From the NCBI GenBank assembly GCA_045635025.1, contig JAZRBK010000188.1, positions 1 to 39,716 on the forward strand: a stretch of DNA of 39,716 nucleotides, written 5' to 3'. A model generated the notes under the pieces. That model searched no databases, was not told the DNA's origin, and worked only from the letters and a program-made list of their open reading frames with translations. This document shows, in pieces, positions 607 through 39,586 of the stretch; the stretch's first letter is position 1, and the number at the start of each line of letters is the position of its first letter. This stretch comes from Candidatus Scatosoma sp. (GTDB lineage Bacteria > Bacillota > Clostridia > Christensenellales > Borkfalkiaceae). Position numbers and translations under genes: made by a program.

Positions 607-1197
607 TTAATAATTCACGGCTTCTTGCCTGTTAATGAAGAAGTGAATACCTGCGGCGCACTCATTCCACCTATCCTCGCAAAAGTCCTTTACCTCTACA
701 ACTCCCCCTACGCGGTAAACAAAATTACTGTCGTACTTGCTTTGCGCTTCTTTGATTTTGGCGGGCGTTCCGTCAATGGTTTGAATGGCAAGCACTTTTG
801 CCTTGTCGCAACGGCACTTGCGCCCCGTAGCCGAACAACGGCGTGCATCCGATAAAATTTCAAGTTCCACGATAACCTCACCGTTTTCGCTATTGCACTT
901 TTTGTAACCGATAAACGAGCCAAAGTCGGGGCAGGCATACGGGATAAAAGGAATATTTTTCGCGCCACGCAAGTCCGCGCCACGCAAGTCCGCGTCACGC
1001 AAGTCCGCGCCACGCAAGTACGCGCCACGCAAGTCCGCGTCACCCAAGTACGCGCCACGCAAGTCCGCGCCACGCAAGTCCGCGCCACGCAAGTCCGCGC
1101 CACGCAAGTACGCGCGCTCGCCACCTTCTTCGGCTCGCGCCCACTTGCAGTGACGCTCCAAAATATCTTTCAGTTCGTCTTTGGTAAAAGTTCTCAT
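607..1197 (-). CDS. Pentapeptide-repeat protein with a Cys-rich C-terminal domain (accessory gene, absent from the right-hand repeat copy)
   Basis: 196-aa ORF with about 11 consecutive A(D/Y)LRG pentapeptides ([17 protein letters not shown]...). The ~110-aa C-terminal domain ends in [17 protein letters not shown] is GGGGGG upstream of the ATG at 1197. Confidence 0.9.
961..1110. repeat. Ten tandem copies of a 15-bp unit (cgcgccacgcaagtc) inside the pentapeptide-repeat gene
   Basis: Units counted directly at 961, 976, 991, ... 1096. Each has 0-2 mismatches. An eleventh, degenerate unit lies at 1111-1125. Confidence 0.95.
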
Positions 1198-4838: not shown

Positions 4839-5252
4839 TTATACCTCGTCGCTCTTATAAGGCTTTATGCAAATATATGGGTTTAATTCTTTGTTTCGCA
4901 GTAGTTGTGCTTTCTTTATCTCCACTTCTTGCTCGACAAACAATTCGATACCGTCAACACACATTTTCAATTCCTCATAAAAGTCATTGACGGCTTTGTC
5001 CGTTTCTTCAAATCTCTTATGCTCGGTACTGCTCTTTGAACAGCCAAACATATTATAAACTTCCGTTCCAATAATGATTGTTTCTTCACTTAATTTTCGT
5101 TCTATGTATGCTCTTATGCTACCTTTTTGTATAATTCCAACAAGCACCCCAACTTCAAATGGCGAATATTGCACCAATATCGTGTATCCATTGTAATCCT
5201 TTGTCAATGGGCATTTTCCAAATCCGCAAAATATTTCATCGTAATTTTTCAT
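4839..5252 (-). CDS. Hypothetical protein (137 aa)
   Basis: ORF trimmed to MKNYDEIF, which has a GAGGGGAG RBS. Confidence 0.75.
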   Translation of the reverse strand: MKNYDEIFCGFGKCPLTKDYNGYTILVQYSPFEVGVLVGIIQKGSIRAYIERKLSEETIIIGTEVYNMFGCSKSSTEHKRFEETDKAVNDFYEELKMCVDGIELFVEQEVEIKKAQLLRNKELNPYICIKPYKSDEV

Positions 5253-7586: not shown

Positions 7587-8489
7587 TTAACTTTTTTCTT
7601 CCTCGCCGTCATCATCGGCTTGCGGCGTGATTTTTGCCCACGAAAAGAACTTATCAATAAACATAATAAGTTCCACATAGAACTTGTTTTTGTACTCGCG
7701 CGAGGACTTTTCGCCGTTGATATAGGACGATACGGCGGTCATAATCATAGAACCGATAAACACGCACGATTTCACAATAGCGGCAAAGGAAAGCCCGTCA
7801 CGCATATTATAGCCGATGTACGCGAGAATACCGCCGATGACAATGGACTTAAACAGGCGGGCGGCGTGTTGCGCTTTGCGGTAGGTTTGCGAGCCGTCCT
7901 TGATAGCCTCCGTGTAGTCGCGGTCAACTGCGGAAAGGATAGTTTCGGGGTTGTTCGCCTTGACGGGGTTTTTCCCGAAAACAAGTTTAATGACCGCCCT
8001 GCGGCGTTTTGGCGTAAAGTACAGCACCTTGCCGTTCAACTCCAACTTGTCAATGGTTTTCAGTTCCGCTTTGGACTTTTGGGCAAGGGCGGCGTACTCC
8101 TCAACGCTCACGCCGATTTTAGCACATTCGTCAGCAATATGGCGCGCCTTGCGTTCCTCAAAGTCATACTCGCAAAACTCCCTCAACTTCTCCACCGAAC
8201 TGTTGTCCGTAGTGATAATTTGGGCGGATTTCTTATTATAGGATTTTCGGTTTGTTTGAAATACATTGTCAAGTTCCCCGTATCGTTCGCCGTCGGGGAA
8301 GTATGCAAAGTGCGTGCTTATTTGGATAGCCGCCGTCAGCGCGAAGTCTATCCAATCAATCTTGCTTTTAATGGAAAGCGTCACGAAAATATATAACGCC
8401 AAAAGTGCGATAATCGTGACCGAAAGCGTCCAAGTCCTTGCGCGGATTATACGGACGCGCGCCGTGAATTGATTTGTGTTATTTCCCAT
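7587..8489 (-). CDS. Multi-pass membrane protein (300 aa), function unknown
   Basis: ORF track. It has at least 4 hydrophobic helices, two N-terminal and two C-terminal, around a soluble central domain. Confidence 0.8.
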   Translation of the reverse strand: MGNNTNQFTARVRIIRARTWTLSVTIIALLALYIFVTLSIKSKIDWIDFALTAAIQISTHFAYFPDGERYGELDNVFQTNRKSYNKKSAQIITTDNSSVEKLREFCEYDFEERKARHIADECAKIGVSVEEYAALAQKSKAELKTIDKLELNGKVLYFTPKRRRAVIKLVFGKNPVKANNPETILSAVDRDYTEAIKDGSQTYRKAQHAARLFKSIVIGGILAYIGYNMRDGLSFAAIVKSCVFIGSMIMTAVSSYINGEKSSREYKNKFYVELIMFIDKFFSWAKITPQADDDGEEEKS

Positions 8490-11285: not shown

Positions 11286-14150
11286 TTATTCAGCCGTAAC
11301 GGGGTTTCCGAACTCGTCCGTCACGGGGTTTCCAAATTCATCGGTTACTTGATTTTCCACAACAGGCGGCGTTGGTGTGGAAGGCACAGCATATACGCCA
11401 CAAAGGAAAAGCGTTGCTTCCGCTCCCCCCATTCCTTTTACAACATAAAAATTCAGCGAAATATCTTCCGTGGGCGTATTTACGCAAGTAAATCTCCAAT
11501 AATTTTGTCCGTTTTTCGTAACTTTGTTTGGAACAATAAAAAGCCCTGCTCTTACCGCTTTTTCCCTGTCTTGTATTGTTGCGGGCGTAAAAAATGCCGC
11601 GTCGTGGTCGCCTATGCCCATAATCGGCGCAGTTGAAAAGTCCATTTCTCCACCGCTCCAATTATTTGCACCCAAAGCCCAAGTCCCACTCGAATTGTTT
11701 ACAATATTCGGGCTTTCCACAACCGCGCGCAAATCAACATACGGATAAGGACTGTAATTACCCTCTCCCAACTCAATAGGAATGCCATTCGTATTTACGC
11801 CGCTATCAATGGTGATAAGGGCTTGATACTGCGCTCTATTCCAACCGTAACTGTTTTTGTACCTGCAATATTGAAAACTGCTAAACTTTACACCTCCGCC
11901 AAGCAAAACTTCCGAATTTGCTCTTGCGAGGACGGAAAGATATTTTGTTTCATTGTCAACCGTATAACGAATGACCGTGAAAGCGTCCTGCGGAATAGTA
12001 AGCCCCGTAGTGTCAAATCTCATCGAGAATTGAACAGTTTTCCCCCTCTCCAACGACTGAATAAGAATATTATCGGAAATCGTCAAAACCACAGTTTCCT
12101 TCGTGTTGTGGAACATATTATTCCCGAAAGTCAGCATTTCAACGGACGGCGTTGCGGTAATAACTTTCATTTCGCCCAAGTCGCCGTATTCAAGCACCTG
12201 CACGCCCGTGTTCAGCCAAAAGTTTGACGGGAACATACTATCGGAAGTAAGAGAATATGTAATAGAATTGCTTGCTTCACGAATAAGGATAAACTCTTGA
12301 TAAATCGTATCCCCCTCTTTCAACCGATAAGGGTTGCCCATTATATTTCCCTTAAACTTCCCAGTAACTGTTGCACTCGCAATGTTGATATTGCCAAAAG
12401 ATACGGGAACAATATCCGTGCTTTGTAAAAGCGGCAAAATCCCGTTGCTTGTATCAATATAAGTTTTTACCTTTAAGTATATTTGCTCGTTGCTCGTTGC
12501 GCTTCTTAAAAATTGATATTTCCCCGAAAAAGAATTTTTGCTCGATATTTCAAAGTTTATGTTGCCGAGCGTGTAAGTTGCCCTACCAAGCACAGTTTCG
12601 CCTATCGGCGCGTCAACTGCGTCAAGCGATACCGAATTGCCAAACCCAAAACTCCAATCTTCCGAGAATACAACTTCGTTATTTACTTTCTTAATGACAA
12701 ACGCATTGTTAAACTCTTTCGGCATAGCGTAGTCTTTTACATATTGTTTTGTCGCGCCCGCCGTTTGCGTAAGATAGGTATTGACGATGTTATTGCCCAA
12801 GCCGTCCTGCAACGCGCGCAAAGCCACGCCGACCTGCGTGTTGCCCGCGATAATGTCCGCGATAGAGGTATGGAGCGTGTTCAAATAGGTGCGAATGTCC
12901 GCGTAATTCCCGTTGTTGTCTTTCACATAAATGGCAACAATTTTGCCGCCCGTGATGTCAACAATGGTGTTTGCCGTCGCGCCCACGGTATAAGTTCCCT
13001 CTACAATACCCGCCGAGCCGTTGCCCGCAAGTTCCATAGGCGGGATTTCATACCAAATCCAATTCGTCCCATTGAAAATCGCCTTGTAGTTTTTGTCAAG
13101 TTGGTCGGTGATTTTTTGAATGATGATAACAGTATCGCCGCCCTTCGGTGCGCGCCCCTCTTTCGTTTGCACATAATTGTTAAGCACGGTGGTCGGGTTC
13201 GGAAGCGGCAAAATATCAGTTGTCACCGTCATTGTACCAACATAATACTCGCCCGCGCCGACAACGCTTTCCAAAGTTGCGATTTTCCCCGCGTTCTCCA
13301 CCGAGCGCGCGTCAGCCGCCGAAGCCGTAGCCGCCGTAGAGTTCTCGCGCGTGTTCAAATTATTAAGCGCGCCCACGACCGTCTTTTCGGTGGTGAATTG
13401 AATATCGTTGTCCTGCTTGTCCTGCTTGCCTTGCATATCCTCCGTAAGTGCGTTCATATCCGCTTCCAAGCGGGCAAGTTCGGACGCTTCCACCGCCTCG
13501 TCGCGGTCAAGCACCGTGGAGCGCAAAATCGGCAAGGTCGCCGTTTGCGAGGTCACAATGTTCGTGATATTTTCCCCCGCGATATTTTCCACATTGATGA
13601 CAAGGGTTTGGTCGCCCACAACATCGGTAAAGTCCTTCGGCATTTGCTTTTCATAAAGCGCATATTCCACGCCCTCGTTTGTGAACTTCTTGACAAAGCG
13701 CGTATAATAGGACTTGCTCTTAAAGACAACGCCGTTCGGGAAAGTTCCAACCATACCGATTTTCACATTCGCGCCCGCCGAGCCGAAGTCAAAATAATCA
13801 ACCGCTTCAAAGCCCCAAACCGCCCCGTCAAATGTCGCCTTATAATAGGTCAGCACGCCCGCGTTGTTGTAAATGTAAAAAACAACATCGCCCGCGTGCG
13901 GTCGCGTTTCGTCCCCCGTAAATGTTTTGATATATGCTGTAAGTAAGGTATTGAGCGCGATTTCGTCCGCCGCGTCCGTCGGGTCAAGCGTGTTTTCCAC
14001 CTGCCCCACTTCAAAGCCGCCCGACAAAATAGCCGTCGGCACAAGAATATTCAACAAAACATTGTTAAATTGCCCGCAGTAAAGCGGAAAGTTTTTGTCA
14101 AGAGCGGCAATTCTCCCACTCGTAGAAAGTTTAATTTTAATGGTATTCAT
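11286..14150 (-). CDS. Tail fibre / receptor-binding protein candidate (954 aa)
   Basis: The call rests on size and position after the 1379-aa protein. It has a central coiled-coil-like segment (LARLEADMNALTEDMQGKQDKQ) and a tandem C-terminal VTDEFGNP octapeptide (24-nt DNA repeat at 11296..11343). Confidence 0.55.
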   Translation of the reverse strand: MNTIKIKLSTSGRIAALDKNFPLYCGQFNNVLLNILVPTAILSGGFEVGQVENTLDPTDAADEIALNTLLTAYIKTFTGDETRPHAGDVVFYIYNNAGVLTYYKATFDGAVWGFEAVDYFDFGSAGANVKIGMVGTFPNGVVFKSKSYYTRFVKKFTNEGVEYALYEKQMPKDFTDVVGDQTLVINVENIAGENITNIVTSQTATLPILRSTVLDRDEAVEASELARLEADMNALTEDMQGKQDKQDNDIQFTTEKTVVGALNNLNTRENSTAATASAADARSVENAGKIATLESVVGAGEYYVGTMTVTTDILPLPNPTTVLNNYVQTKEGRAPKGGDTVIIIQKITDQLDKNYKAIFNGTNWIWYEIPPMELAGNGSAGIVEGTYTVGATANTIVDITGGKIVAIYVKDNNGNYADIRTYLNTLHTSIADIIAGNTQVGVALRALQDGLGNNIVNTYLTQTAGATKQYVKDYAMPKEFNNAFVIKKVNNEVVFSEDWSFGFGNSVSLDAVDAPIGETVLGRATYTLGNINFEISSKNSFSGKYQFLRSATSNEQIYLKVKTYIDTSNGILPLLQSTDIVPVSFGNINIASATVTGKFKGNIMGNPYRLKEGDTIYQEFILIREASNSITYSLTSDSMFPSNFWLNTGVQVLEYGDLGEMKVITATPSVEMLTFGNNMFHNTKETVVLTISDNILIQSLERGKTVQFSMRFDTTGLTIPQDAFTVIRYTVDNETKYLSVLARANSEVLLGGGVKFSSFQYCRYKNSYGWNRAQYQALITIDSGVNTNGIPIELGEGNYSPYPYVDLRAVVESPNIVNNSSGTWALGANNWSGGEMDFSTAPIMGIGDHDAAFFTPATIQDREKAVRAGLFIVPNKVTKNGQNYWRFTCVNTPTEDISLNFYVVKGMGGAEATLFLCGVYAVPSTPTPPVVENQVTDEFGNPVTDEFGNPVTAE

Positions 14151-14188
14151 ACCCGCAACCTCGTTACAAGATTTTTCCCCTTGCTTTT

Positions 14189-14217
14189 AGTTTACCACTT
14201 TTAGAGGAAAAAATCAA
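14189..14217 (-). promoter_or_regulatory. Promoter: TTGATT, 17-nt spacer, TAAACT with TGn extension
   Basis: On the minus strand, TTGATT is at 14217-14212 and TAAACT at 14194-14189, upstream of the 954-aa gene. Confidence 0.45.
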
Positions 14218-14257
14218 GAGCATTAAAAGACTTTTCTTTCCTCGCGCGCACGCGCGG

Positions 14258-14501
14258 TTATTATTTTTTATGTGTATAATAATAGTAATAATAATAAGCA
14301 TTGTGGATAACTTCGGCAATTTTGGCACGATTTTTCTTTGTAATGTTCGGATAAATAGGGAAAAATGCCTAAAATACCCCCTAAAAAGTTATCCACATTT
14401 ATGCAAAGTTATCCACAATTTGAATAAAAAAGTGGTGAGTTATCCACATTTATGCACGAGTTATCCACAAGTTATCCACAAAATAGGGTGAGTTATCCAC
14501 A
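14258..14501. other. oriC-like element: AT-rich tract, a TAA/TAG triplet run, and seven exact DnaA boxes (TTATCCACA)
   Basis: Boxes lie at 14302-14310 (inverted) and at 14389-14397, 14409-14417, 14440-14448, 14461-14469, 14472-14480 and 14493-14501 (direct). Seven TAA/TAG triplets lie at 14277-14297, and the region is non-coding. Confidence 0.7.
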
Positions 14502-14565
14502 ATTTGGAAAGGTTGTCAACATACCGTAGTTTTTCTACACTTCCGTAATGTTTTTACGGCAGGGC

Positions 14566-14591
14566 AAAAAAGACCCCGCGCGGGGTCTTTT
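14566..14591 (-). terminator. Rho-independent terminator after the 1379-aa gene; bidirectional in shape
   Basis: AAAAAA GACCCCGCGCGGGGTC TTTT. Confidence 0.8.
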
Positions 14592-14613
14592 AATTGTTCT
14601 ATGTGGAACATTT

Positions 14614-17600
14614 TTACTGCTTGTTTGTGAATACCTTTGCCTTGTTTGGTGCGCCGATATACCAAGTATAGTGAGGGAAGAAGTAATCGTTTTTGGCGAT
14701 AGTGAATTTTTGGGATAATCCGCTTTGTCCGCTTTCCATAATTGCAACTGCTTGCATAGTTTCTCTTATATCGGGGGAAAGCCCCTCTATCCAAGACATA
14801 TCGACCACGATTTTGTTGCCGCTTGTTGTGATAATTGCAGGGTGGTCTAAATCTTCCTCGTATTCGGCTAAAATGCTGTCAACGCTTATATAGCCGTTTG
14901 TCATCTTATTCACCTTTGACGAAAGCACAACGACCTTTGCTTTGTTCTTCTTGTTATTATCAAAGAAGAACGGGGAAATAACAAACTCATCGCTTTCGGC
15001 AATTTGAATAAGGTTGTAATTGAAATGCAGGGTTTCTCGGCAGTCCTTAAACAAGACAATGCTTTTCCCGATATTTGCCGTGTTGGAAACAATGGGGGTT
15101 GCGTTGCCCTGCGTATAGCGCGGGACATACTCTTGTTTTTCATCGTCCCAAGCGAAGTAAACATATCCGTCCCATTCGCCGAGTTCATTATTCCAAATTT
15201 GCGCGCCAACATAAGAGCCGCTAACGCGCCTATAAAGGTAATAAGCCAAAATCGCGGTATTATCATTGTTTATTACGCCCATAAGGATAACATCTCCGTT
15301 GGCGGCGGCATTTCCCGTTGCCGCAAGTATCTTTCCGTCGAGGTATGCGGTTAAATTCGCTTGCCCTGCTTCAAAACTTGACAATATATCGTTAGAGGTT
15401 GCCGTTAAGTAAGTGAATGATATAACGCTGTAAACAACACCTGCGGACGGAGTTATCGGCGTAACGCCGTCGTGGGGGACAAGCCAAGAGGACGAGAACA
15501 GCGTGCTATCCGTCTTTATATCCACTTCCATTTCAACGGAGTTCTCGCCAAAAAGCGGGGACTTTGGCAGGGAGCGGATTTGGTCGGACGAAAGTTTTAA
15601 TTCGCCATAAAGGGCAAAATCAAGCAACCCTGCCTTGCCGTACTTATCGCAATATTGCACCGCGCGCATTGTGCGGTAGGCATTATCGGCGGTGGGGTTG
15701 TCTTGCATAGTAATTTCCGCGCTCACTTCGTCGCCTGCGGAAAAGTTATCGACCATATCCCATTCATAGGTCAAAGTACCGCCGCTTTGGTAAGCGTTGA
15801 CGGGGTGGAGCATATCTTTTGACAGGCTACGCACGCCAAAAGTCCCCTCGTTCCCGTTGTCCTTATCACCACGGAAACTTGACAAAGCCCATTTCAAATA
15901 AGTGCTTCCATTCCCGAAGATAAGATTTTTGGTATGCTCAATATCCGCAATAAACCCTGCGCTTTCGTCAATTTCGTCGCTTTTTGTCGTGACGAGCAAA
16001 TAGTCATTGATAGCAACCTCGCGGTCTATCGCGCTTTGTTCGCTTATCTCAAAGAAACGAGGCTCGGACGGAATACCGATAATTGCGGAAAGTTGGTTGT
16101 AGTCCTTTGAGTATTCAACTACGCTTTCTATATGGTCGGGGTAGAAAATATGCGTAATTTTTGCGATATAATAAAGCCCCTCCCCTATCCAACAAAGGTC
16201 GCCCTTATGGAGAAGTTGTGCCAAGTGGTCGCACCATTGAGTTTCTTTGTAATTGTTGTTGCCCGTGCGAATGAGTTTACCAAACACATTTCTACCAAAC
16301 GCCACGCTATCAACAAGCGTGTCCTGTTGGTTGTTAAATTGCTTATGCGTCGGAACGCGGTCATATTTGCTTGCCAAAATGTAGGAACGCAAATCGGGGC
16401 GCGCGTGTTCAAGACGAGCCGTGTCTTTCGTGCGATATTCGACCTCAAAGATAAAATCATTCACTTTGACATCATACCACGGGCTATCCGAAATTTGCCA
16501 CCCCGACATTCCTGTGATATAAGGAATATTAAAGTTTTGGTCTAAAAATGCCGTTATGATGATTTTCTTAAAGGCATAATCGTGATATGGGTTTGTAACA
16601 GGCGTGGGGAGTTGATAATCGCCGCCCTTAATGACCTTATCACCAAGTTCATAATACATAGCAATACCTTTGTTCGGAACATCGTTTGCACGCACCGACA
16701 AAAGCCCGTAAATGTTCTTTTCGTAAATGTACGGCGTAAGGTCGGCGGTGTCCCCTTTGTGAATATCATAAGTGTCGTCACCAACTGTAATAGAATAGTT
16801 ATTGTCCGCGACCACGGTCAAGTTAAGCAATTCTATAATCGGCTTGCTCACAATGATACACGCTTCGTCATTATCGACAACAAAGTTCTCACTTTCGGTC
16901 TTTGCGACAACCTTTTCCTTAATGCTTCCACCGAGTTGTACAAGGTTATCCACATAAGAGGAACACGCGGAAATGTAATCGTCAACCTTTCGGAAGTTCA
17001 TAACGCTTGAACGAGTGTTGGAATTTTCGGTTGCGTCCATTCCGCCCAACTTCGTGAAAGTGATTTCGTATTTTTCGTCTTTGCCAAAACTAACTTCGGG
17101 GATAGCGTGACAATACTTTCCGACTTCAAGCATAATCTCCCAAAGGTTCTTTTGGTGGAAAAAGGTTTCATTCACGCGCGTTAGGCGCAGGGTGTCTTTG
17201 GAAATTTTATCACCGCCGCCCTCGCCTACATAGAAAGGATAAGGCGCGTTGTTTGCGTCAAGGTCAGCCGCGCTTGTCCCGTCCTCTTTGAAATAGGTAT
17301 CGGAATTTGCAATAGCCTTTATAAGCATATTATATGCGGTATATTCAACGCCTTGTTCAAGAACGGCGGTTTCGTTTCCGCTTGCATAGGTTGTAAAAGC
17401 GCAAGTTACACCCGAAGTGGAAATACCGCGCGTTGTGCAACTTACAGTTTCAGCGTATTGGTCTATAAACGCGCCAATACCGCCCGTAACTCTACGCGTT
17501 TTCTTTTTCGTATAATTAAAGGTAGTATAGTTGTCGGGTGTATTTGCACCAACAACATATTTCCCCACGCTATCGGAAAAGCCAATAAGCGGCATTGACG

Positions 17601-18753
17601 GAGTGCCGCCCACTTCTTCGATAAATAATTCTACGGAATAAGTGCTATCGTCATTTACTTCAAATTGCGCCGTGAACACATTATCAGCCAAAGTATCATC
17701 AAGCGTCCTGCTCCCCGCTCCGTCGGTCGTATATTGACGGAAAAGGAATTTTGATACGGGATAATCATTTTGCAGTTCTACTTCCTCTTGTTCAATAAGA
17801 TAGTGCGCTTTAACATCGGCAGGAACATCACCTTGCGGAATATCCCACTTATAGGGGAAAGTTGTATCAACAGTATTCCCAAGATTTGAGTTAGACAAAA
17901 ACTGCTCTTTCGGAAAAACATTTACAGTTCCGTCCGCCATAGTTTCGATTATGACCGCGTAAAAAGACGCAACGCCAATATCGGCAAATGCAGGGGATAA
18001 TACTCGCGGCGGTCTATGCGCGGGGTTTTCGTCCGTTCCGTCAATTCTTCCCCACATAATATGGGGGACGGGGATTTCCAATTTCGCCCATTTTTTTCCG
18101 TTTCCGTCTTGTTGAATATCCGCCGTCTTAATGTATCTTAACTCCGTGCGCTGTTCAACATTGTTTGTATCGGTATAGACAAAACGAACACGGCTTCCGT
18201 CCGTCTTTTTTCTCCAATAGATATATTTACCGAAAGAAGTGTTGCGCGTGCGAGAATAGGTAGTTTCGTCAACATAGTTCCCAAAGCCGCGTTGAACATA
18301 CGGCTCTTGATTATTTCCTATGTCCGTAACGCTATCCTCTAAAATGTCGAGCGCAGTTTGCGTTTCAAGGCTAACATCTTTCAGTTTATAGGTTATTGCA
18401 ATATTGTCCACGACGCGCTTTTGCGCGACAACGGCAGGCTCTATAAGCGTAATGCTATGCACATAATATTCGTCGTCCGACAAAATGGGCTTTTCCACCA
18501 AATCTTCCTGCACGACGCGGTGGTAGGTAAAGGTCAAGCCGTCCTGCTCTACCACATCAATGATAAACTTTGTTTCGGGGTCAAACGCGGTCTTGCGCGG
18601 CAATCCGTGCAAAGTGATTTCCGAAAGGTCAAGTTCTTCGGTAATATCTTCGGTATTTTGCGCGCCCGACAAAACATAATCGGACAAATCCTCGCCGCGA
18701 TACCCGTTTGCTTCTTGTGTGCTGTCGTACAAATAAAGATTTACCCCTATCAT
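14614..18753 (-). CDS. Large virion/tail-tip protein (1379 aa)
   Basis: This is the longest ORF. Its N-terminus (YRGEDLSDYVLSG...) loosely resembles distal-tail-protein openings. It follows a Gly-rich TM protein. Confidence 0.5.
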   Translation of the reverse strand: MIGVNLYLYDSTQEANGYRGEDLSDYVLSGAQNTEDITEELDLSEITLHGLPRKTAFDPETKFIIDVVEQDGLTFTYHRVVQEDLVEKPILSDDEYYVHSITLIEPAVVAQKRVVDNIAITYKLKDVSLETQTALDILEDSVTDIGNNQEPYVQRGFGNYVDETTYSRTRNTSFGKYIYWRKKTDGSRVRFVYTDTNNVEQRTELRYIKTADIQQDGNGKKWAKLEIPVPHIMWGRIDGTDENPAHRPPRVLSPAFADIGVASFYAVIIETMADGTVNVFPKEQFLSNSNLGNTVDTTFPYKWDIPQGDVPADVKAHYLIEQEEVELQNDYPVSKFLFRQYTTDGAGSRTLDDTLADNVFTAQFEVNDDSTYSVELFIEEVGGTPSMPLIGFSDSVGKYVVGANTPDNYTTFNYTKKKTRRVTGGIGAFIDQYAETVSCTTRGISTSGVTCAFTTYASGNETAVLEQGVEYTAYNMLIKAIANSDTYFKEDGTSAADLDANNAPYPFYVGEGGGDKISKDTLRLTRVNETFFHQKNLWEIMLEVGKYCHAIPEVSFGKDEKYEITFTKLGGMDATENSNTRSSVMNFRKVDDYISACSSYVDNLVQLGGSIKEKVVAKTESENFVVDNDEACIIVSKPIIELLNLTVVADNNYSITVGDDTYDIHKGDTADLTPYIYEKNIYGLLSVRANDVPNKGIAMYYELGDKVIKGGDYQLPTPVTNPYHDYAFKKIIITAFLDQNFNIPYITGMSGWQISDSPWYDVKVNDFIFEVEYRTKDTARLEHARPDLRSYILASKYDRVPTHKQFNNQQDTLVDSVAFGRNVFGKLIRTGNNNYKETQWCDHLAQLLHKGDLCWIGEGLYYIAKITHIFYPDHIESVVEYSKDYNQLSAIIGIPSEPRFFEISEQSAIDREVAINDYLLVTTKSDEIDESAGFIADIEHTKNLIFGNGSTYLKWALSSFRGDKDNGNEGTFGVRSLSKDMLHPVNAYQSGGTLTYEWDMVDNFSAGDEVSAEITMQDNPTADNAYRTMRAVQYCDKYGKAGLLDFALYGELKLSSDQIRSLPKSPLFGENSVEMEVDIKTDSTLFSSSWLVPHDGVTPITPSAGVVYSVISFTYLTATSNDILSSFEAGQANLTAYLDGKILAATGNAAANGDVILMGVINNDNTAILAYYLYRRVSGSYVGAQIWNNELGEWDGYVYFAWDDEKQEYVPRYTQGNATPIVSNTANIGKSIVLFKDCRETLHFNYNLIQIAESDEFVISPFFFDNNKKNKAKVVVLSSKVNKMTNGYISVDSILAEYEEDLDHPAIITTSGNKIVVDMSWIEGLSPDIRETMQAVAIMESGQSGLSQKFTIAKNDYFFPHYTWYIGAPNKAKVFTNKQ

Positions 18754-25137: not shown

Positions 25138-26634
25138 TTATTGAATACCATTGGTAAGTTGTGCCTTTTTGATTTTTTCGTTTTCTTCAAGGCGTTTTAC
25201 TTCGTATGCCTTTTCTTCCTCCGACAGTTCGGGGAAAACAAGGTCAACGAATAATTTTGCGGAAATGCCCCCCTGCGAGTACATATCCATATAAATCTTT
25301 GCATTTTCAAGTGTCGGTGCTTGCGCTTGACTTTTGAAAATGATTTTGACGGGTTTGTGGTCGTAGTAACGCATAACCTTTGCAAGCAACGCGTTAATTG
25401 CAGGTGCAATAAGCGCAATTTGCGTCGGTATCCACGCGGAAGTCTTGTTCTTTTCGTTGAGAATGGCGGCGGCTACTGTTTCCGTAGAGCCGTCCGTCAA
25501 GAACGAGGCGATAGTCGAAGCCGATACATTGAGTTTCGCCGCGACATCGCGGTAAATGTTCTCCTTTTGCACACGAATATCGCTTGCACGCAATTTGAAC
25601 TGAATATCGGTCGGCTTGTCGGTATCCGTGCCGTTCGACCCCACCTTTTGGAAAATCGTTTCGTCAAAGTCCCCAAAGGTTTGCGCGGGGTCGTCCTTGT
25701 TCATCATTTGTTCGGGCATTAAAATTCGACCTTTCGCCACATAGACTTCGTTTTTCTCAAAGCATTTGAGTTGGTCGAACTGTTGACATTCGGACGAAAT
25801 AATATCTCCGATAGGCTGTCCAAACGGCGTGTTGGGCAATTTGGGTATCCCGTCCGTGAATTTGACGGGGAAAAGCCCCACGCTGTCCGCAAAGGGCAAA
25901 TATTGTTCTTTCCCTATCAAAATATCGGGATAGTTTTCCTTAATATGCCGTTTTACCGCGCGAGGTAATTGCTCCCACGGTATGCTTTCTTCCGCGCTTT
26001 TCGGGCGGGACGATACATCGGACTGAATGTTGCCATTTACGCAGTAAATAGCCCTCTTAACGCAAGGGATACCGCGTTCGTTGAAATATCTTTCCTCGCA
26101 AATGCCGTAGTGGTTGTCCTTGTCATTCTCGGTATCGTGGAAAAGGTCAAAGTAAACTCTTGCCCCCTCAACCTTGCCCATAGCATTGAAATCGGCAAAA
26201 AAGGTATCAATGCGGTACGCCGCCGCCCCGATATTGTTGCCGTTTCGTGTCGCCGCCAAAAGAGAAGTGCCGCCTGCCGCGCTATAAAGGAACGCTTTAC
26301 GCAAAATCGACAAGAGATTTGTTTTCTCCGCCCAATCCCTCGCAAACTTCGTGTCATATTCTTCACCCACAAAATCAATGCCGTGGGCGAAAAGAACATT
26401 ACAAAGCCCCTTTGCTACGGACTGCGCCAATTTTTCGGGGACAAGCCCCTTTCCGAAATTGTGATATGTGGGGTCGTACCCGTCGTAAATACGCAACATA
26501 AAGCGCAAATACTGCGAGTAAAACGGCATATAATACGGAGGTGCTAAAAGGTAAAAGGGGTTGTTCTTCAAAAACCCGTAAAACGCCCCTAACTGATTAG
26601 ACTGACCGCTTTGACCGACTTCGATAATAGCCAC
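25138..26634 (-). CDS. Portal protein candidate (498 aa); GTG start
   Basis: The call rests on size and position downstream of the terminase genes. RBS is GGAGAGG 9 nt before the GTG. Confidence 0.6.
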   Translation of the reverse strand: MAIIEVGQSGQSNQLGAFYGFLKNNPFYLLAPPYYMPFYSQYLRFMLRIYDGYDPTYHNFGKGLVPEKLAQSVAKGLCNVLFAHGIDFVGEEYDTKFARDWAEKTNLLSILRKAFLYSAAGGTSLLAATRNGNNIGAAAYRIDTFFADFNAMGKVEGARVYFDLFHDTENDKDNHYGICEERYFNERGIPCVKRAIYCVNGNIQSDVSSRPKSAEESIPWEQLPRAVKRHIKENYPDILIGKEQYLPFADSVGLFPVKFTDGIPKLPNTPFGQPIGDIISSECQQFDQLKCFEKNEVYVAKGRILMPEQMMNKDDPAQTFGDFDETIFQKVGSNGTDTDKPTDIQFKLRASDIRVQKENIYRDVAAKLNVSASTIASFLTDGSTETVAAAILNEKNKTSAWIPTQIALIAPAINALLAKVMRYYDHKPVKIIFKSQAQAPTLENAKIYMDMYSQGGISAKLFVDLVFPELSEEEKAYEVKRLEENEKIKKAQLTNGIQ

Positions 26635-27234: not shown

Positions 27235-28722
27235 TTATTTTATCATTCCCGCCGCGCGCTTTATATCGTCATAATGCGCCTTTCGGGACGGGAAAGATAG
27301 GTTGTAACAGTTGCTATAATACGGGATAAGTCCGTATTCCAATGCGTCGCACAAGTCATTCTTAATCGCGGGGTCAAGTTTCCCGTTCTTATACCTTTGC
27401 GCTTCGATTTCGTGGCGCAGGCGGTGGGTGTTCGGGTTGCCCCTCCAATCATATTTGCCCTCGTTGAGAACGGTAAGGACGCTATAAGCAAAGGCGTTTT
27501 TGATAATGCCCAAGTTTATATCCTTTTTCTTCTTCGTAAAGGCAAAAATGCTGATGTTCTTCCACAATTCCGTGTTTGGGCTTGTGCGCTTTAAGTGCCT
27601 TAACTGCGCGATAAACGGGCTTGCCGCGCCGTCCACCGATAACGCAACTTTGACATAATTATACACCAAGCCGTAATTATTGTCAAGATATAAGAGGAAG
27701 TCGTCAAGCATTTCGCATTGTTCGGTCGGTGCAAGCGTCCTGTTCGTTTCTTCGGGGTCGTCATAGCAAACCTCCAATGTTTGCGCCGTTCCGTCGTCCA
27801 ATATCGCCACAGGGACTATGGCAAAGGTATCGTTTGCCGTCGCGTGGTCGATACCGACAATAATGTTTGTAATATACCGCTTTTCAAGTTCGGGCTTTGT
27901 CTTGTAATGCCTGTTCCTGTCGAATTGCGGGAAAACCACCGAAGATGTGTTGGCGTGAATATCGCCCAAGTAAACCCTCCGATATTCCGTGGGATTCGTC
28001 CTTTGCATATCCAAAATATGCTTTTTCGCCTCGTCATTGAGCAAATGCCAAATATGGTGGCAGTTCGCATAAATAACAAGCCACTCGTCGGACTTCTTCT
28101 TCGTTTCCGCATAGTCCACAAACCAATGCCCCACAGTTTCGTTGTTGCCGACGATAATGATTTTCGCGTGCTTTGACAACTGACGGACAAAGGTGATAAT
28201 GGACTGTTCGATAACATTCTCGTCCTTGTTCTTTTGCGCTTCCTCATAGAGCAACAAGGAAATGGGGTTGAGCAACTTTGTACTCCTCGTCCTTTGACCG
28301 CCCCTGCTATCGGTTATCGGGAAAAGCCTTGTGCAACCCTTTACGCCCCTGCGAAAAACGCCCTCATACGACTTCGGGATATAAAACTCCGCGCGGGGGT
28401 CGTCCTGCGATACTTCAAGCCCGCTGTTAAGCAAGAAAGAGTGAATTTCCTTTATGATACTGTCCTTAATTTCGGTAGAGGTCGCTTGACAAATAACGAC
28501 ATCTTCATCGGGGTAAGCGTTTATCGCGTCCCACCACGCCGCCACCAAAATGGAAGATTTACCGCTTGCACGACCGCTTGAAAGCACGAATTTGTCATAC
28601 TTCTTGTCCGTCCGCGCGTTCGGATAAAGGCTTAATGCGCTCTTATCAACTTTTCCCGTGAATATGGGCGAATAGATTTGAGGAATTATAAGGGTTTCCG
28701 CGTTGGTCTTAAATTCACTCAT
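27235..28722 (-). CDS. terL: Terminase large subunit
   Basis: 495 aa. Walker A-like SSGRASGKSS lies near the N-terminus. The gene follows and overlaps terS. Confidence 0.85.
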   Translation of the reverse strand: MSEFKTNAETLIIPQIYSPIFTGKVDKSALSLYPNARTDKKYDKFVLSSGRASGKSSILVAAWWDAINAYPDEDVVICQATSTEIKDSIIKEIHSFLLNSGLEVSQDDPRAEFYIPKSYEGVFRRGVKGCTRLFPITDSRGGQRTRSTKLLNPISLLLYEEAQKNKDENVIEQSIITFVRQLSKHAKIIIVGNNETVGHWFVDYAETKKKSDEWLVIYANCHHIWHLLNDEAKKHILDMQRTNPTEYRRVYLGDIHANTSSVVFPQFDRNRHYKTKPELEKRYITNIIVGIDHATANDTFAIVPVAILDDGTAQTLEVCYDDPEETNRTLAPTEQCEMLDDFLLYLDNNYGLVYNYVKVALSVDGAASPFIAQLRHLKRTSPNTELWKNISIFAFTKKKKDINLGIIKNAFAYSVLTVLNEGKYDWRGNPNTHRLRHEIEAQRYKNGKLDPAIKNDLCDALEYGLIPYYSNCYNLSFPSRKAHYDDIKRAAGMIK

Positions 28723-32958: not shown

Positions 32959-34161
32959 TTATTCAGCCGCTTTGAAGTTGTAGATAGGTTTCAGCATAGC
33001 CAAGATTTCGACGGTGTCTTTGACAAGTTCTACTATTTCCTCGCTCGGCTTGTAGGCAAACGGTGCTTCGTCGATAGTCGTTTCGTCCACGGTTGTCGAA
33101 TACACACCGCTCATAGTTTCTTTGAAGTCGGCAAGTTGAATTTCTTTTCTTGCCTGCGCCCTGCTCATAGAGCGACCTGCCCCGTGCGGCGCGCTGTTGT
33201 TCCATTCGGCGTTCCCTTTCCCAAAACCCAAAATATACCCGTCGCGCATATTAAGGGGGATAAGGACTTTTTCTCCTTCTTTTGCGCTTATTGCGCCCTT
33301 GCGAACGATACCGTCCTCGCCTATGTAGTTATGCAGGGTAGTAAAACCAACTTCCTCGATGATACCGAACGCAATAGATTGTCTTACTTCACAATACTTT
33401 GAGAGAATGGCGGCGGCTATCATTTTTCTATTATAGTCGGCAAATTTGCGGCAAATCTCAACATCGTGCAAATAGTCTTTCAGCAAGTCGCCCGTAAGGT
33501 AGGACAATTCTTTCGGGACGAGCGGCTTGCTTTTCTTATAGGCTTTTACGGCTTCCTCAATTTCAGTCGTTCTTCCCTCGCTCTTTAAGCGGTCAATAAC
33601 TTCCTGCACGCCGTCAAGTTTCATTTGTTTTTCCGCTTTCTTTTGGTAGATTTCGGCAACCTGCTTTCCGAGATTACGCGACCCCGTATGAATTACAAGG
33701 TATTTAGCGCCCCGCTCGTCAATGTCAAGTTCAATGAAGTGATTACCGCCGCCGAGCGTACCTGCGGAAGCGCAAAGCCATTCCCTGTTGCGGAGTTCGT
33801 CTTTGCATTTCAGCAAATCAATAAGTTGTCCCATACCCACGGACGGCTCTTTTTGCACATTTTTTCCCGACGGGACTTGCTCTTTTACAACCTTGTCAAA
33901 TCGTTCAAGGTCGATTTTGTCCTTTCCGAGCAAAACGCAAAGCATACCGCAATTCAAGTCAACGCCTACGATGTTGGGGCATAACTTGTCCCCAAGCGGC
34001 GCGGTAAAGCCGATTACGCACCCTGCTCCCGCGTGACAATCGGGCATAATGCGGATAGGTGCGTCGCCAAATATTTTCGTGTCGGCAAGCCGTTTTATTT
34101 GTTCAACGGCGGCTTCTTCCACATTGTCCGTAAAGATTTTCACATTGTCAAATTCTTTCAT
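32959..34161 (-). CDS. rtcB: RNA 3'-phosphate/5'-OH ligase RtcB
   Basis: 400 aa with the RtcB hallmark motifs MPDCHAGAGCVIG, GGGNHFIELD, HTGSRNLG, PLNMRDG and NSAPHGAGR. Confidence 0.9.
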   Translation of the reverse strand: MKEFDNVKIFTDNVEEAAVEQIKRLADTKIFGDAPIRIMPDCHAGAGCVIGFTAPLGDKLCPNIVGVDLNCGMLCVLLGKDKIDLERFDKVVKEQVPSGKNVQKEPSVGMGQLIDLLKCKDELRNREWLCASAGTLGGGNHFIELDIDERGAKYLVIHTGSRNLGKQVAEIYQKKAEKQMKLDGVQEVIDRLKSEGRTTEIEEAVKAYKKSKPLVPKELSYLTGDLLKDYLHDVEICRKFADYNRKMIAAAILSKYCEVRQSIAFGIIEEVGFTTLHNYIGEDGIVRKGAISAKEGEKVLIPLNMRDGYILGFGKGNAEWNNSAPHGAGRSMSRAQARKEIQLADFKETMSGVYSTTVDETTIDEAPFAYKPSEEIVELVKDTVEILAMLKPIYNFKAAE

Positions 34162-35148: not shown

Positions 35149-35559
35149 TTAAAACGGCAAATCGTCCTCGTCCACTTGAACGGGGGGCATACCCGCCATT
35201 TTCTCCTGCTTGTATTCCTCCGCTCTCGGCATAGTCGGCGTTGCGTTCTCGCCCTTGCTCATAGACAGGAAGCAAACATCGTTCGCGTTGATTTCGGTGA
35301 CGGTCTTTTTCGTGCCGTCATTTCCGTCAAATTCGCGCGTTGTCAACCTGCCCTGCACGATAACCCTGTCACCTTTCTTCAAGTGTTGGTAAACGGCGGC
35401 GGCGGTTTTGCCCCACGCGACCACGGGGAAGAAGTCGGTTTTTTCCCCAATTCCCCCAACCGCAACGCGGAAGTTCGCCTTTTCCGTCCCGCTTTGCAAC
35501 TTTGTGAGTTCGGGGTCTTTCGTCAAACGCCCACTCACCACAATGCTGTTCATATCCAT
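35149..35559 (-). CDS. ssb: Single-stranded DNA-binding protein
   Basis: The OB-fold opening NSIVVSGRLTKDPEL and the acidic C-terminal tip DEDDLPF are present. The start was set at the ATG with an AGGAGG RBS. Confidence 0.9.
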   Translation of the reverse strand: MDMNSIVVSGRLTKDPELTKLQSGTEKANFRVAVGGIGEKTDFFPVVAWGKTAAAVYQHLKKGDRVIVQGRLTTREFDGNDGTKKTVTEINANDVCFLSMSKGENATPTMPRAEEYKQEKMAGMPPVQVDEDDLPF

Positions 35560-35561
35560 AT

Positions 35562-35765
35562 TTACTTTACCTCCTTGCACTTTCTTGTTAAGGGGCGACC
35601 GTGATGTACGGTTGCCTTGTAATGGGCGTAATCCTCCGTGTCATACGCCGTATATCCGTCTTTTGTCTTGTAGGTTTCGATAGCCCCACGCGCTTGCAGG
35701 GCGTAAATCTCGTTTGATTTTGCGCGCCCCTGCGTCTTTCTTACTTCCCTCAATTCGATAATCAT
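35562..35765 (-). CDS. Hypothetical protein (67 aa)
   Basis: ORF track; ATGA overlap with the small upstream ORF. Confidence 0.7.
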   Translation of the reverse strand: MIIELREVRKTQGRAKSNEIYALQARGAIETYKTKDGYTAYDTEDYAHYKATVHHGRPLTRKCKEVK

Positions 35766-35902: not shown

Positions 35903-36227
35903 ACGCGCCGCTTACCTCCAACTGCTGTATCGTCCCCATTTCGCTTACGCGCGCCGAGATAATGAATTTTTTGTCGCCCGCCGTCAGCAAGTAAACCTTT
36001 AATGCGTCCGTGCTTCCTTTTATCGCCGTGGTAAATACCATTTGAATTTCCGCGCTCTCCGCGTCAATTTCCCCGATAAGCAGCACCGCCGCGCCCTTGA
36101 CCTCCTGCGTTGTGGTTTCGTCCTTTTTTAATTCGCCGCCCGCAATAAGGCAACAAAGAACAAACGCCCCGATGACCGCCACCATAACGGCGATAATCAC
36201 CACAATTTCAACTTTCCCTTTCTTCAT
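35883..36227 (-). CDS. Secreted or membrane-anchored protein (114 aa)
   Basis: ORF trimmed to MKKGKVEIVVIIAVMVAVIGAFVLCC, which has a GGAGG RBS. Confidence 0.7.
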   Translation of the reverse strand: MKKGKVEIVVIIAVMVAVIGAFVLCCLIAGGELKKDETTTQEVKGAAVLLIGEIDAESAEIQMVFTTAIKGSTDALKVYLLTAGDKKFIISARVSEMGTIQQLEVSGAYERPNN

Positions 36228-36825
36228 CGCCCTTGTCCTCCACATTGATAAAGTCTAAAAACTTCTCCTTTGCCTTTATTTTGCGCTGTATGGGCTTTCC
36301 GAGTATGTCCACGACCAATTTGCCGTCGAACATCTTAAACGCGTCCCTACGGGCATTTTTGTAGCCCTGCCGTAGTCCGTCGCGGTATCCTTTGGTCGGC
36401 GCGTTCGGTGCAATACCGATTTTGCCCTTATCTTGCCCCCCTGCGGTCTTGTTGTATAGTTGATAGCCGCGGGCGGCGTATTGCTTGATAAACTCCCTTT
36501 CCTTTTCGTCAAGCGAGGTTTCGGGGAAGTACCAAGCCGTCACCCTCCACCCCGTCGTGTTTTTCTCGCTCCAAAGTCCGCGCGCCTTTTCTTTCAGCGA
36601 AAGGTCGATATGTTGGTCGTGTCCCATAAGGTGTTGCGCGAGGCGCGTTAGCACTTTCTTTGCTTGCCCCACATAGGCGTATTTCAGCCCCGTTTCCTCC
36701 TCGTAGCGCGTAAAGGCGTAAATTCCGCTTTCCTCAAAAAGGGACGCTTCGGGAAACGCCTCGACCAACCGCTTTTTATTCGCCGCCAAGACAGCCATTC
36801 GTTGCTTCCAAGTCATCGGCTTCAT
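36208..36825 (-). CDS. GIY-YIG nuclease-domain protein (homing-endonuclease-like)
   Basis: SGIYAF...YAYVGQAKKVLTRLAQH...EKEREFIKQYAARGYQLYNKTAGG fits the GIY / YVG / R / H / E / N spacing. The start is at MKPMTW with an AAGGAGGG RBS. Confidence 0.7.
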   Translation of the reverse strand: MKPMTWKQRMAVLAANKKRLVEAFPEASLFEESGIYAFTRYEEETGLKYAYVGQAKKVLTRLAQHLMGHDQHIDLSLKEKARGLWSEKNTTGWRVTAWYFPETSLDEKEREFIKQYAARGYQLYNKTAGGQDKGKIGIAPNAPTKGYRDGLRQGYKNARRDAFKMFDGKLVVDILGKPIQRKIKAKEKFLDFINVEDKGDEERES

Positions 36826-37216
36826 TCTTGCCCTCCTTCTTCTTGTCAAAGTAGCAACTCACAAGATAATCGTTGTCCTTTTCGTTGAACTTGAATTGCC
36901 CGTTGGCGCGGATTTTCTTCTCCATTTTGCGCGCTTTCCTCAAAAGGCTAAACGCCGACGCATAGGTTACGCCGCACGCTTTAAGGCACTCCTGCTTGTC
37001 GTTGCACATATACAAAGCGGTGGAAGTGGAGATAATGCCCTCGTATTCCGAGCCGTAGTTGATTTCGTGTGTCACCAAACGCATTTCGCGTTCGGACAAG
37101 CCGTGTTCCTGCGCGTACACCGAGCGTTTGACAGCGTTCTCGCGCCCCAAGTGGTTGCTTTCAAGGTCGGCGTAAATCTCCGCGACCAATTCCTTTGTCA
37201 CCCTCTTATTCCTCAT
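36776..37216 (-). CDS. Hypothetical protein (146 aa)
   Basis: ORF track. Confidence 0.75.
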   Translation of the reverse strand: MRNKRVTKELVAEIYADLESNHLGRENAVKRSVYAQEHGLSEREMRLVTHEINYGSEYEGIISTSTALYMCNDKQECLKACGVTYASAFSLLRKARKMEKKIRANGQFKFNEKDNDYLVSCYFDKKKEGKNEADDLEATNGCLGGE

Positions 37217-39450: not shown

Positions 39451-39493
39451 TAAAATACCCCCTTGTGGGGCTTTCCGCCCCCTTGATACCTCT

Positions 39494-39522
39494 ATTGTAT
39501 CATACTTTCACCGCATTGTCAA
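39494..39522 (-). promoter_or_regulatory. Promoter: TTGACA, 17-nt spacer, TACAAT (copy of the promoter at 1249..1277)
   Basis: On the minus strand, TTGACA is at 39522-39517 and TACAAT at 39499-39494. The UTR hairpin lies at 39467-39481. Confidence 0.7.
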
Positions 39523-39549
39523 CAATTTGCATAAAATTTTTTCAACTTT

Positions 39550-39585
39550 TTTTCTAAAAACAATAACCCCCTGTAAGGGGGTTAT
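39550..39585 (-). terminator. Rho-independent terminator (copy of 1305..1340)
   Basis: The stem ATAACCCCCT/AGGGGGTTAT spans 39563-39585. Confidence 0.6.
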
Positions 39586-39586
39586 G

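Follow-up and report, generated by a model that had tools for sequence, protein, structure and literature searches.

An oriC-like DnaA-box cassette in a tailed-phage genome occupies the slot of replication initiator genes in related phages and may serve as an origin driven by host DnaA

The contig JAZRBK010000188.1, analysed over its full 39,716 nucleotides and referred to here as the window, has overlapping ends (positions 1-565 correspond to 38854-39418 with 91% identity and 1219-1471 to 39463-39716 with 94%) and is therefore a complete circular phage genome with wrap-around. Every long open reading frame (ORF) of the window is located on the minus strand. The element described here lies in a gap of 463 bp between an upstream ORF for a 1379-aa protein (14614-18753) and a downstream tail gene for a 954-aa protein (11286-14150), a gap size on which a preliminary description of this DNA and our analysis agree. 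Within the gap, an array of perfect DnaA boxes stands next to a run of TAA/TAG triplets and an AT-rich tract, a layout resembling the unwinding region of a bacterial chromosomal origin of replication (oriC). Both neighbouring genes had been described as virion genes. This designation is based on their size and their place downstream of the terminase and portal genes; neither protein has a family match (Pfam, PHROGs, NCBIfam) or a match to a PDB sequence. For the 954-aa protein, no identical sequence is on record, and its AlphaFold model (pLDDT 66) gave only weak, low-TM Foldseek matches to jelly-roll and tail-tip structures.

The DnaA box TTATCCACA is found eight times as an exact match in the window. 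Seven copies are located within 200 bp of the gap (14302-14501) and the eighth at 16946-16954. Dinucleotide-preserving shuffles gave an expectation of 0.23 exact boxes per window with a maximum of three in any shuffle; when up to one mismatch was allowed, 22 sites were counted compared to 7.1 expected. The box closest to the triplets, termed the proximal box, is an exact match on the minus strand (14302-14310, TGTGGATAA on the plus strand) and is oriented towards them. The other six form the distal array on the plus strand (14386-14502; box starts at 14389, 14409, 14440, 14461, 14472, and 14493). All seven perfect copies in the gap share the extended repeat unit AGTTATCCACA, and the DnaA box is the only multi-copy repeat family found there. 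The starts of the direct boxes are spaced by 20, 31, 21, 11, and 21 bp, close to whole helical turns, and the six boxes are phase-coherent at a period of 10.4 bp (R = 0.97). When boxes were placed at random across this span, 0.06% of the arrangements were as coherent (p ~6e-4).

Three weaker boxes accompany the perfect ones. A one-mismatch box (TTATACACA, 14271-14279, minus strand) is situated at the far end of the triplet run inside the AT-rich tract; it has the sequence of box R2 of Escherichia coli and is co-oriented with the proximal box, so that the triplets are bracketed by two co-oriented boxes. The second, with two mismatches (TTATCCGAA, 14346-14354, minus strand), lies in the 78-bp spacer between the proximal box and the distal array, is oriented like the proximal box, and keeps its position invariantly in the alignment with relatives. 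A degenerate box, also with two mismatches (TTGTCAACA, 14506-14514, plus strand), follows 13 bp past the last perfect one and is perfect in a relative designated L001. Two near-boxes at 26715 and 26868 were considered as a second cluster and dropped, as both are located inside small coding ORFs.

Beside the proximal box, the plus strand carries seven consecutive triplets of the DnaA-trio type, TAA TAA TAG TAA TAA TAA TAA (TAATAATAGTAATAATAATAA, 14277-14297; 3'-AAT/GAT-5'), separated from the box by the 4-bp spacer GCAT (14298-14301). The order on the plus strand is 5'-(TAA/TAG)x7-GCAT-TGTGGATAA-3', which corresponds to 5'-TTATCCACA-ATGC-TTATTATTATTACTATTATTA-3' on the minus strand. Neither strand of the window has another run of at least four TA[AG] triplets; in simulated genomes, 0.06 runs of four or more were counted and none of seven. 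The complement of the trios consists of TTA/CTA repeats and gives TnnT repeats like those of a DnaD recognition element (DRE). The triplets lie within an AT-rich tract (14258-14300, 88% A+T), a candidate DNA unwinding element (DUE), and according to nearest-neighbour free energies no other duplex segment of the 39.7-kb window is as unstable as 14257-14302 at the 30-, 45-, and 60-bp scales. The tract is preceded by a GC palindrome that forms a hairpin (TCGCGCGCACGCGCGG, 14242-14257, plus strand) with a T-rich run behind it; the hairpin might also serve as a GC clamp at the border of the unwinding tract. A terminator scan reported this hairpin as terminator-like on the plus strand; in that reading, hairpin and T-run (14242-14270) are antisense to all phage genes.

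Most of these features had been picked out by eye in the preliminary description. The exact scans recovered the seven nonamers with one inverted and six direct copies, their helical spacing, the single further copy outside the gap, the triplet run, the AT-rich tract, and the palindrome in front of it, and the excess of boxes held against the compositional expectation. The list of boxes in that description was complete for the perfect copies and had missed the three weaker ones.

The arrangement was compared with the rules for the basal unwinding system (BUS) of bacterial origins, in which a DnaA box with at most two mismatches is followed by at least three NAN trios with the consensus 3'-GAT-5' (PMC8287927). 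Between them lies a spacer of 0-16 bp that contains a short 'GC-rich' gap, about 4 bp long, to which the GCAT of the window corresponds. The trios are carried on the 5' tail relative to the boxes, and in vitro the oligomers of DnaA depend on duplex boxes together with a 5' trio tail (PMC8287927). In the window, the proximal box is perfect compared to TTATCCACA, the spacer is 4 bp long (GCAT), and seven TA[AG] triplets follow. The polarity is 5'-trios-spacer-TGTGGATAA-3', the other strand reading TTATCCACA and then CTA/TTA repeats, and the unstable AT-rich region (14257-14302) is directly adjacent. In Bacillus subtilis, the boxes are followed by 5'-CTACTATTACTTCTACTA-3', a DRE with TnnT repeats (PMC10201434), and the incC region (DnaA-boxes 6/7, trios, AT-rich segment; PMC6669920, PMC8287927, PMC10201434), compared by description, has the same boxes-to-DRE order. 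Distal boxes of B. subtilis act by looping, in either orientation, over 132-462 bp and with helical phasing (PMC6669920). The distal cluster of the phage is about 80-190 bp away from the unwinding module, and by analogy a role of this inverted, phased array by looping is plausible. The oriC of E. coli, whose sequence as used here was matched completely and in a single copy by 5425 of 5426 genomes of the species, has the same polarity from the DUE to R1, and its R4 box (TTATCCACA) is inverted at the far side like the distal array.

The similarity to bacterial origins covers the box, the short spacer, the trios, the AT-rich tract, and their polarity. In contrast to a chromosomal oriC, the cassette belongs to a phage, has tail genes on both sides, and shows no linkage to dnaA or dnaN. 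All of its main boxes are perfect and only one of them is proximal, whereas chromosomal origins mix strong and weak sites, and unlike a bacterial BUS it is compact (about 260 bp) with a GC hairpin at its boundary. One further occurrence of its core was found on a bacterial chromosome. The 22-mer box-ATGC-TTATTATTA recurs identically on the contig Ga0194129_10000706 (L155), the sole match of a metagenome scan, which a protein search identified as a chromosome fragment of Candidatus Dependentiae. At 4870-5190, this contig carries eight perfect boxes and the core box-ATGC-TTATTATTATTA. That region is located between nusA and a gene for an NlpC/P60 protein, not beside dnaA, and is probably a dnaA-unlinked oriC. 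As the 22-mer match lies on its chromosome, Candidatus Dependentiae was ruled out as the phage host.

The 52 ORFs of the window were searched against Pfam, PHROGs, and partly NCBIfam. None of them matched a family of initiators, helicases, loaders, primases, or polymerases, as the preliminary description had stated for dnaA and the other replication genes, and no Bac_DnaA, DNA_pol3_beta, Rep, or DnaA-domain-IV-like family was found either. The genes for a Sak annealase (38836-39450, minus strand) and a single-stranded DNA-binding protein (SSB; 35149-35580, minus strand), both assigned by family match, and for a RecE-like exonuclease are present. Origins such as P1 oriR and those of pSC101, F, R6K, and RK2 combine DnaA boxes by an AT-rich region with their own Rep initiator and iterons. 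These DnaA-assisted origins of plasmids and phage-plasmids are likewise extrachromosomal and use host boxes and an AT-rich region, but the window has no Rep family among its 52 ORFs and no separate iterons, the DnaA box being the sole repeat family of the gap. A comparison of the cassette with 72,556 plasmids gave no sequence match. Judged by its sequence, the cassette possesses all core elements of a BUS and is neither a chromosomal oriC nor a Rep/iteron origin.

The 954-aa protein has hundreds of metagenomic relatives encoded on contigs of 30-40 kb, in which the slot corresponding to the gap is flanked by a gene for 1240-1390 aa and a tail gene for 860-1110 aa. In L001 (77% protein identity) and in L002 and L003 (66%), this gap contains the same array, trio run, AT-rich tract, and hairpin, with eight perfect boxes in L001 and seven in L002 and L003. 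The GCAT spacer is identical in L001 and L002, and the TTATACACA box is kept in both. A 73-aa ORF on the plus strand of the window (14270-14491) was dropped as a gene candidate, its ATG being lost in L001. A different content of the slot was found in L005, L022/L023, L024, and L025/L026, where the gap is occupied by one gene on the opposite strand encoding a replisome organiser/DnaD-like protein (PF09681; PHROGs E = 1e-26 to 1e-30), and in L020/L021, where a DnaD-like gene (E = 3.5e-47) is accompanied by one for a DnaC-like loader (E = 1.1e-54). The distant relatives L006, L007, L011-L015, and L028 lack both an insert and boxes, and a distance of only 50-160 bp separates the two flanking genes. 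The arrays are confined to the window and L001-L003 and are absent from every initiator-type locus; arrays and initiator genes are mutually exclusive in the slot.

The BLAST similarity of the window to L005, L020, L024, and L025 breaks at 14182-14219, in the promoter/leader of the tail gene, and since it resumes there, the variable cassette comprises approximately 14220-14613. The GC palindrome was tried as a core common to this cassette and the organiser type and rejected; L005 and L022 have it within their rep genes, whereas those of L024, L025, and L020 lack it. From these comparisons, the slot is the replication-initiation cassette of the clade, in which a non-coding DnaA-box module takes the place of the initiator gene in the sub-lineage of the window. 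The position of the module inside the late structural block, previously regarded as unusual, turns out to be the regular place of replication cassettes in these phages. The organiser-type modules correspond to origins of the SPP1 G38P/oriL type (Phage_rep_org_N/DnaD-like, with or without a DnaC-like loader). The window has no organiser gene, whereas L005 and L020-L026 carry one in this slot. In contrast to these modules, the cassette is non-coding and provides no phage protein, so that recognition would be passed to host DnaA; helicase loading would presumably proceed by the same host pathway.

The upstream edge of the slot is marked by the palindrome GTTCTATGTGGAAC (14596-14609), identified by a regular-expression scan of the window and its relatives and by alignment. 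It is present at the slot edge in L001, L002, L005, L020, L024 (two copies), and L025, irrespective of the cassette type, was not found in L022, and is absent from the relatives without a cassette. This sequence may represent a cassette or recombination boundary or a regulator site. A second conserved copy was detected at about 7668-7683, inside a gene for a 300-aa protein (7587-8489). An intrinsic terminator hairpin with a 12-nt perfect inverted repeat (AAAAGACCCCGC/GCGGGGTCTTTT, 14568-14591, minus strand; terminator scan) closes the 1379-aa gene. It could be active in both directions because an A-run and a T-run are located on its opposite sides. At the other end, the tail gene is preceded by a promoter-like site on the minus strand (14189-14217; −35 TTGATT, 17 bp, extended −10 TGnTAAACT), for which an equivalent exists in L005 (TTGCTT, 17 bp, TGnTATTAT). 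The gap had been described as bracketed by a terminator and a promoter. The terminator was found by the scan, but the promoter was recognised by eye and is below the threshold of the scanner.

The location of the array between a terminator and the tail-gene promoter, and the established function of DnaA as a transcription factor, raise the question of transcriptional control, with DnaA bound in the gap as repressor, activator, or roadblock coupling the tail genes or operon read-through to the DnaA-ATP state. A weak promoter-like sequence on the minus strand (TTGCCG, 17 bp, TATTAT; 14319-14291) even contains the proximal box in its spacer. However, this site matches at 9 of 12 positions and is at chance level (3 sites vs. 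2.7 expected in the region), the relatives keep the same tail-gene promoter region without boxes, and neither trios nor a DUE would be needed for such regulation, all of which renders it decidedly improbable as the main function of the cassette.

A sensitive BLAST search of the gap against phage records resulted in matches to non-coding regions of gut Microviridae. The full ordered cassette was found in the pig-gut genomes MT135265, MG945568, MG945717, MG945739, and MG945529 and in the IMG/VR contig 3300045988_135622. The region is unannotated in the five Microviridae records, and a literature search yielded no paper pairing Microviridae or gokushoviruses with DnaA boxes and no description of the region. 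In the three carriers examined, MT135265.1 (L152), MG945717.1 (L153), and the IMG/VR contig (L149), the cassette is located on the coding strand directly after the gene for VP4 (590-850, 780-1040, and approximately 1330-1545, respectively), and all three encode VP1 and the rolling-circle initiator VP4. The order of elements is a CGCGCGTGCGCG hairpin, an AT-rich tract, (TAA)5-6, GCAT or GCGG, an inverted box, a spacer of 80-100 bp, and tandem AGTTATCCACATTTATGCA boxes. The GCAT of the window is conserved in L149 and L152, and the cores AATAATAATAAGCATTGTGGATAAC and AGTTATCCACATTTATGCA(C)GAGTTATCCACA are near-identical between the window and the microviruses.

The carriers differ from the tailed phage in that they are single-stranded DNA (ssDNA) genomes of 4.5-4.7 kb with their own rolling-circle initiator. 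Their cassettes have fewer perfect boxes (3-5), lack the TTATACACA box, and contain an internal spacer that is unrelated to that of the window and rich in TGCATA. Motifs of the type TTTATGCA and TGCATAA adjoin boxes of the window at 14398-14405 and 14449-14456 and are repeated many times in the spacer of L152 (about 680-780); a second host factor might bind to them. Because the shared hairpin and spacer are not part of any DnaA requirement, they favour a common ancestry of the cassettes, or the copying of a single host origin, over convergence. The only partner that microviruses and the tailed phage appear to have in common is a host factor. The GC hairpin follows VP4 on the coding strand in the microviruses and is antisense to the genes in the tailed phage, and this strand relation may hint at the direction in which the cassette was transferred.

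The microviral position of the cassette brings in a function as an ssDNA priming site, comparable to a single-strand origin or the A site of an ABC-primosome. In this case, the inverted box would pair with a direct one on displaced or packaged ssDNA, and the resulting duplex box with its 5' trio tail would allow DnaA to load helicase and primase for complementary or lagging-strand synthesis, and no duplex would be opened. The coding strand of Microviridae is the packaged strand, and in L149, L152, and L153 the cassette lies on it, with the trios 5' of the inverted box and right after VP4. In the window, a 14-nt perfect inverted repeat (14300-14313/14406-14419) is present, and in the predicted ssDNA fold (z = −3.4) the inverted box is joined to a direct one; that fold is a trivial result of inverted boxes. 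ABC-primosomes are known from E. coli plasmids and not from Bacillota. The reliance of DnaA oligomers on duplex boxes and a 5' trio tail in vitro (PMC8287927) fits a priming site as well. In the gokushovirus L154, however, the array has the opposite direction relative to the genes and no clear inverted box, and the first initiation event of the tailed phage would be left unexplained. Priming on ssDNA is an attractive reading for microviruses; as the function of the cassette in the window, we judge it to be rather unlikely.

Box arrays were also found in other phages. At least 120 IMG/VR contigs (L029-L148) contain three or more tandem perfect boxes, with up to eleven in 300 bp. Among these listed matches, 46 have at least five boxes in 300 bp, four of 120 show a box-plus-trio module by a strict rule, and none of the 75 ORFs flanking the arrays encodes DnaA or DnaN; the flanking families comprise GP88 (PF17338, seven times), an Sf6-type small terminase, VapE, a T7-type terminase, and a methylase. 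In the Lactococcus phage AM1 (L151, KY554768.1; 126 kb), seven perfect boxes, four of them in tandem at 20-21 bp, are followed by a long array of repeats of about 40 bp in an unannotated intergenic region at 22.4-23.4 kb, which is likely an origin region. The Clostridium phage phiCD6356 (L150, GU949551.1) has three boxes, one of them perfect, after three ACCACCACTTTTTGAGA repeats (27387-27448). They are intergenic between helix-turn-helix (HTH) genes, with a ParA-like gene and a 'putative phage replication protein' in the vicinity, a setting that resembles a plasmid-like maintenance region. The number of contigs suggests that dense DnaA-box arrays beside phage genes are widespread and largely undescribed. 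Arrays of boxes in phages as such were known before; new in the window is a complete unwinding module in place of initiator genes.

A published example is found in T5-like phages, which have eight conserved DnaA boxes in the injection-stop region, for which a replication role was judged unlikely (bioRxiv 10.1101/866236). Like the array of the window, these boxes are conserved, non-coding, located in a tailed phage, and have been compared with oriC. In contrast, they are paired with 3-bp gaps within large inverted repeats of the terminal repeat, and T5 has its own replication machinery with origins elsewhere and no described trio/DUE module. Carried over to the window, the T5 case would mean that the boxes tether the incoming genome to membrane-bound DnaA and thereby pause injection or position the DNA. 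This model is a proposal even for T5 and would apply here by analogy, and the site in the window is mid-genome on a circularly closing contig that has no terminal repeat structure. With an unwinding module in the cassette and initiator genes in the same slot of the relatives, a tethering signal is highly improbable.

Dense clusters of high-affinity boxes outside oriC are also known from bacteria, namely datA of E. coli and the DnaA-box clusters of B. subtilis, which are not known to have adjacent trios or an unwinding element. The preliminary description had considered a datA-like sink as an alternative. The array would titrate host DnaA, and rising phage copy numbers would shut down host initiation or DnaA-regulated transcription, while the phage itself starts replication elsewhere or by recombination. 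The seven perfect boxes, amplified with the phage genome, would suit such a sink, as would the common occurrence of dense arrays in phage contigs and the presence of the cassette in microviruses with their own initiator; Sak, the RecE-like exonuclease, and SSB could support recombination-driven replication. But titration requires neither an oriented box by seven trios nor the least stable duplex of the genome. The bacterial clusters are not known to replace initiator genes, whereas the cassette stands in the slot which in the relatives holds exactly these, and neither an alternative origin nor an initiator was found in the complete genome. The unwinding module leaves the sink a small probability, and we consider it unlikely.

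The cassette at 14220-14613 is best explained as a phage origin that mimics bacterial oriC, would be run by host DnaA, and would replace a phage initiator. Considering the box density, the BUS layout with its unique trio run and stability minimum, the initiator genes in the equivalent slot of relatives and their mutual exclusion with arrays, the lack of a recognisable initiator gene in the window, and the recurrence in microviruses, we assign this interpretation a probability of about 0.6. It corresponds to the function first proposed for the element in the preliminary description, the recruitment of host DnaA for phage replication, for which the initiator genes in the same slot of the relatives and the BUS layout now provide support. 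Based on this layout and on published work on oriC, the following course of events is conceivable. DnaA would fill the six phased boxes (14389-14501) and the opposite-facing proximal box (14302-14310), and looping from the distal array would help ATP-DnaA to cross the 4-bp spacer from the proximal box and to oligomerise on the seven plus-strand trios (14277-14297). The adjacent AT-rich tract, the least stable duplex of the genome, would then open. The TTA/CTA complement would offer TnnT repeats of the kind bound by DnaD in Bacillota, and the DnaD/DnaB/DnaI-DnaC pathway of the host or an equivalent one would load the helicase and start theta replication. Later, Sak annealase, the RecE-like exonuclease, and SSB might switch to concatemer synthesis, as in SPP1-type phages.

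Several observations weigh against this interpretation. A tandem box pair is present in about 57% of the predicted chromosomal BUS modules, a single upstream box being enough in vitro (PMC8287927); in the window, no 9-mer with up to four mismatches was seen by eye within 3 bp of the proximal box. The examined microvirus carriers have the VP4 initiator, so that the cassette there is not the sole origin and may have another role. GC skew shows no inflection at 14.3 kb and tracks the early and late gene blocks, and is uninformative because all genes of the window are co-oriented. The host, and hence its DnaA and loader system, was not identified in one scan of genome contigs. L001 and L002 share 96-98% identity with the window in the cassette compared to 66-69% in the upstream neighbour gene, but conservation is just as high (92-96%) over the first 1.5 kb of the tail gene. 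A shared mosaic block explains the conservation of the cassette as well as selection does, and conservation was dropped as proof of selection for this reason. Finally, orphan ORFs are numerous, and one of them might encode an unrecognised initiator.

The last two points open the way to a further explanation, in which the boxes are iterons of such an initiator that match the DnaA consensus by chance, or the cassette is a non-functional passenger hitch-hiking in the mosaic block; the mobility of the cassette between phage groups would agree with a passenger. Against iterons, all seven copies are the exact DnaA consensus, and neither a DnaA-domain-IV-like nor another Rep family was found. The occurrence with unrelated gene sets, VP1/VP4 in microviruses and those of a tailed phage here, points to a host factor, and in a remnant, neither the trio run that is unique in the genome nor the stability minimum nor the phasing would be expected to persist. 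We therefore regard this explanation as improbable.

The remaining gene content is that of a tailed phage, with the large terminase (27235-28722) and the portal (25138-26634), both on the minus strand and assigned by family match, and genes for a small terminase, RtcB, a GIY-YIG nuclease, and YopX. Because nearly all ATG genes of the window have strong Shine-Dalgarno sites upstream, Sak and YopX genes are present, and relatives have DnaD-like genes, the host is probably a member of the Bacillota. The scan of genome contigs matched two contigs of metagenome-assembled genomes, one from a 'Clostridia bacterium' and one of 40 kb binned as Methanobrevibacter. The latter was taken as a mis-binned phage, and neither is an integrated prophage. 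A megablast search with 13000-16000 against 50,697 phage records gave no match, an IMG/VR search with a single protein gave no relatives, and Rfam reported nothing above threshold for 14000-14800. In the overlapping ends of the contig, the head copy has approximately 650 bp extra, which hold a pentapeptide-repeat/DUF5758 gene (607-1197, minus strand); this looks like a circular genome assembled over two strain variants. The genes for the RNA ligase RtcB (32959-34161) and the GIY-YIG nuclease (36208-36849) and a tRNA-like element with an undetermined anticodon predicted by ARAGORN (2641-2711) may form a tRNA-repair or counter-defence set.

Provided that the cassette functions as an origin, the lineage of this phage hands initiation entirely to its host. 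Phage DNA synthesis would be tied to the DnaA-ATP level and the growth state of the cell, and phage and oriC would be direct competitors for DnaA. The replacement would be visible within one clade as a series from organiser plus loader through organiser alone to no protein at all. With about 260 bp and consensus elements only, the cassette would offer a minimal system of natural origin in which the basal unwinding model can be examined away from a chromosome, and it could serve as a small vector origin for gut Bacillota that are hard to transform. More tentatively, and with somewhat less than even confidence, a portable, protein-free oriC mimic may circulate among unrelated gut phages, both tailed double-stranded DNA phages and ssDNA Microviridae, and may replace initiator genes outright, so that replication is licensed wholly by the DnaA-ATP cell-cycle state of the host. 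In microviruses, it might act in DnaA-dependent complementary-strand priming or plasmid-like theta maintenance. The occurrence in Microviridae would mean that non-coding replication modules move between viral realms, and it raises a possible role of DnaA in the replication or persistence of microviruses.

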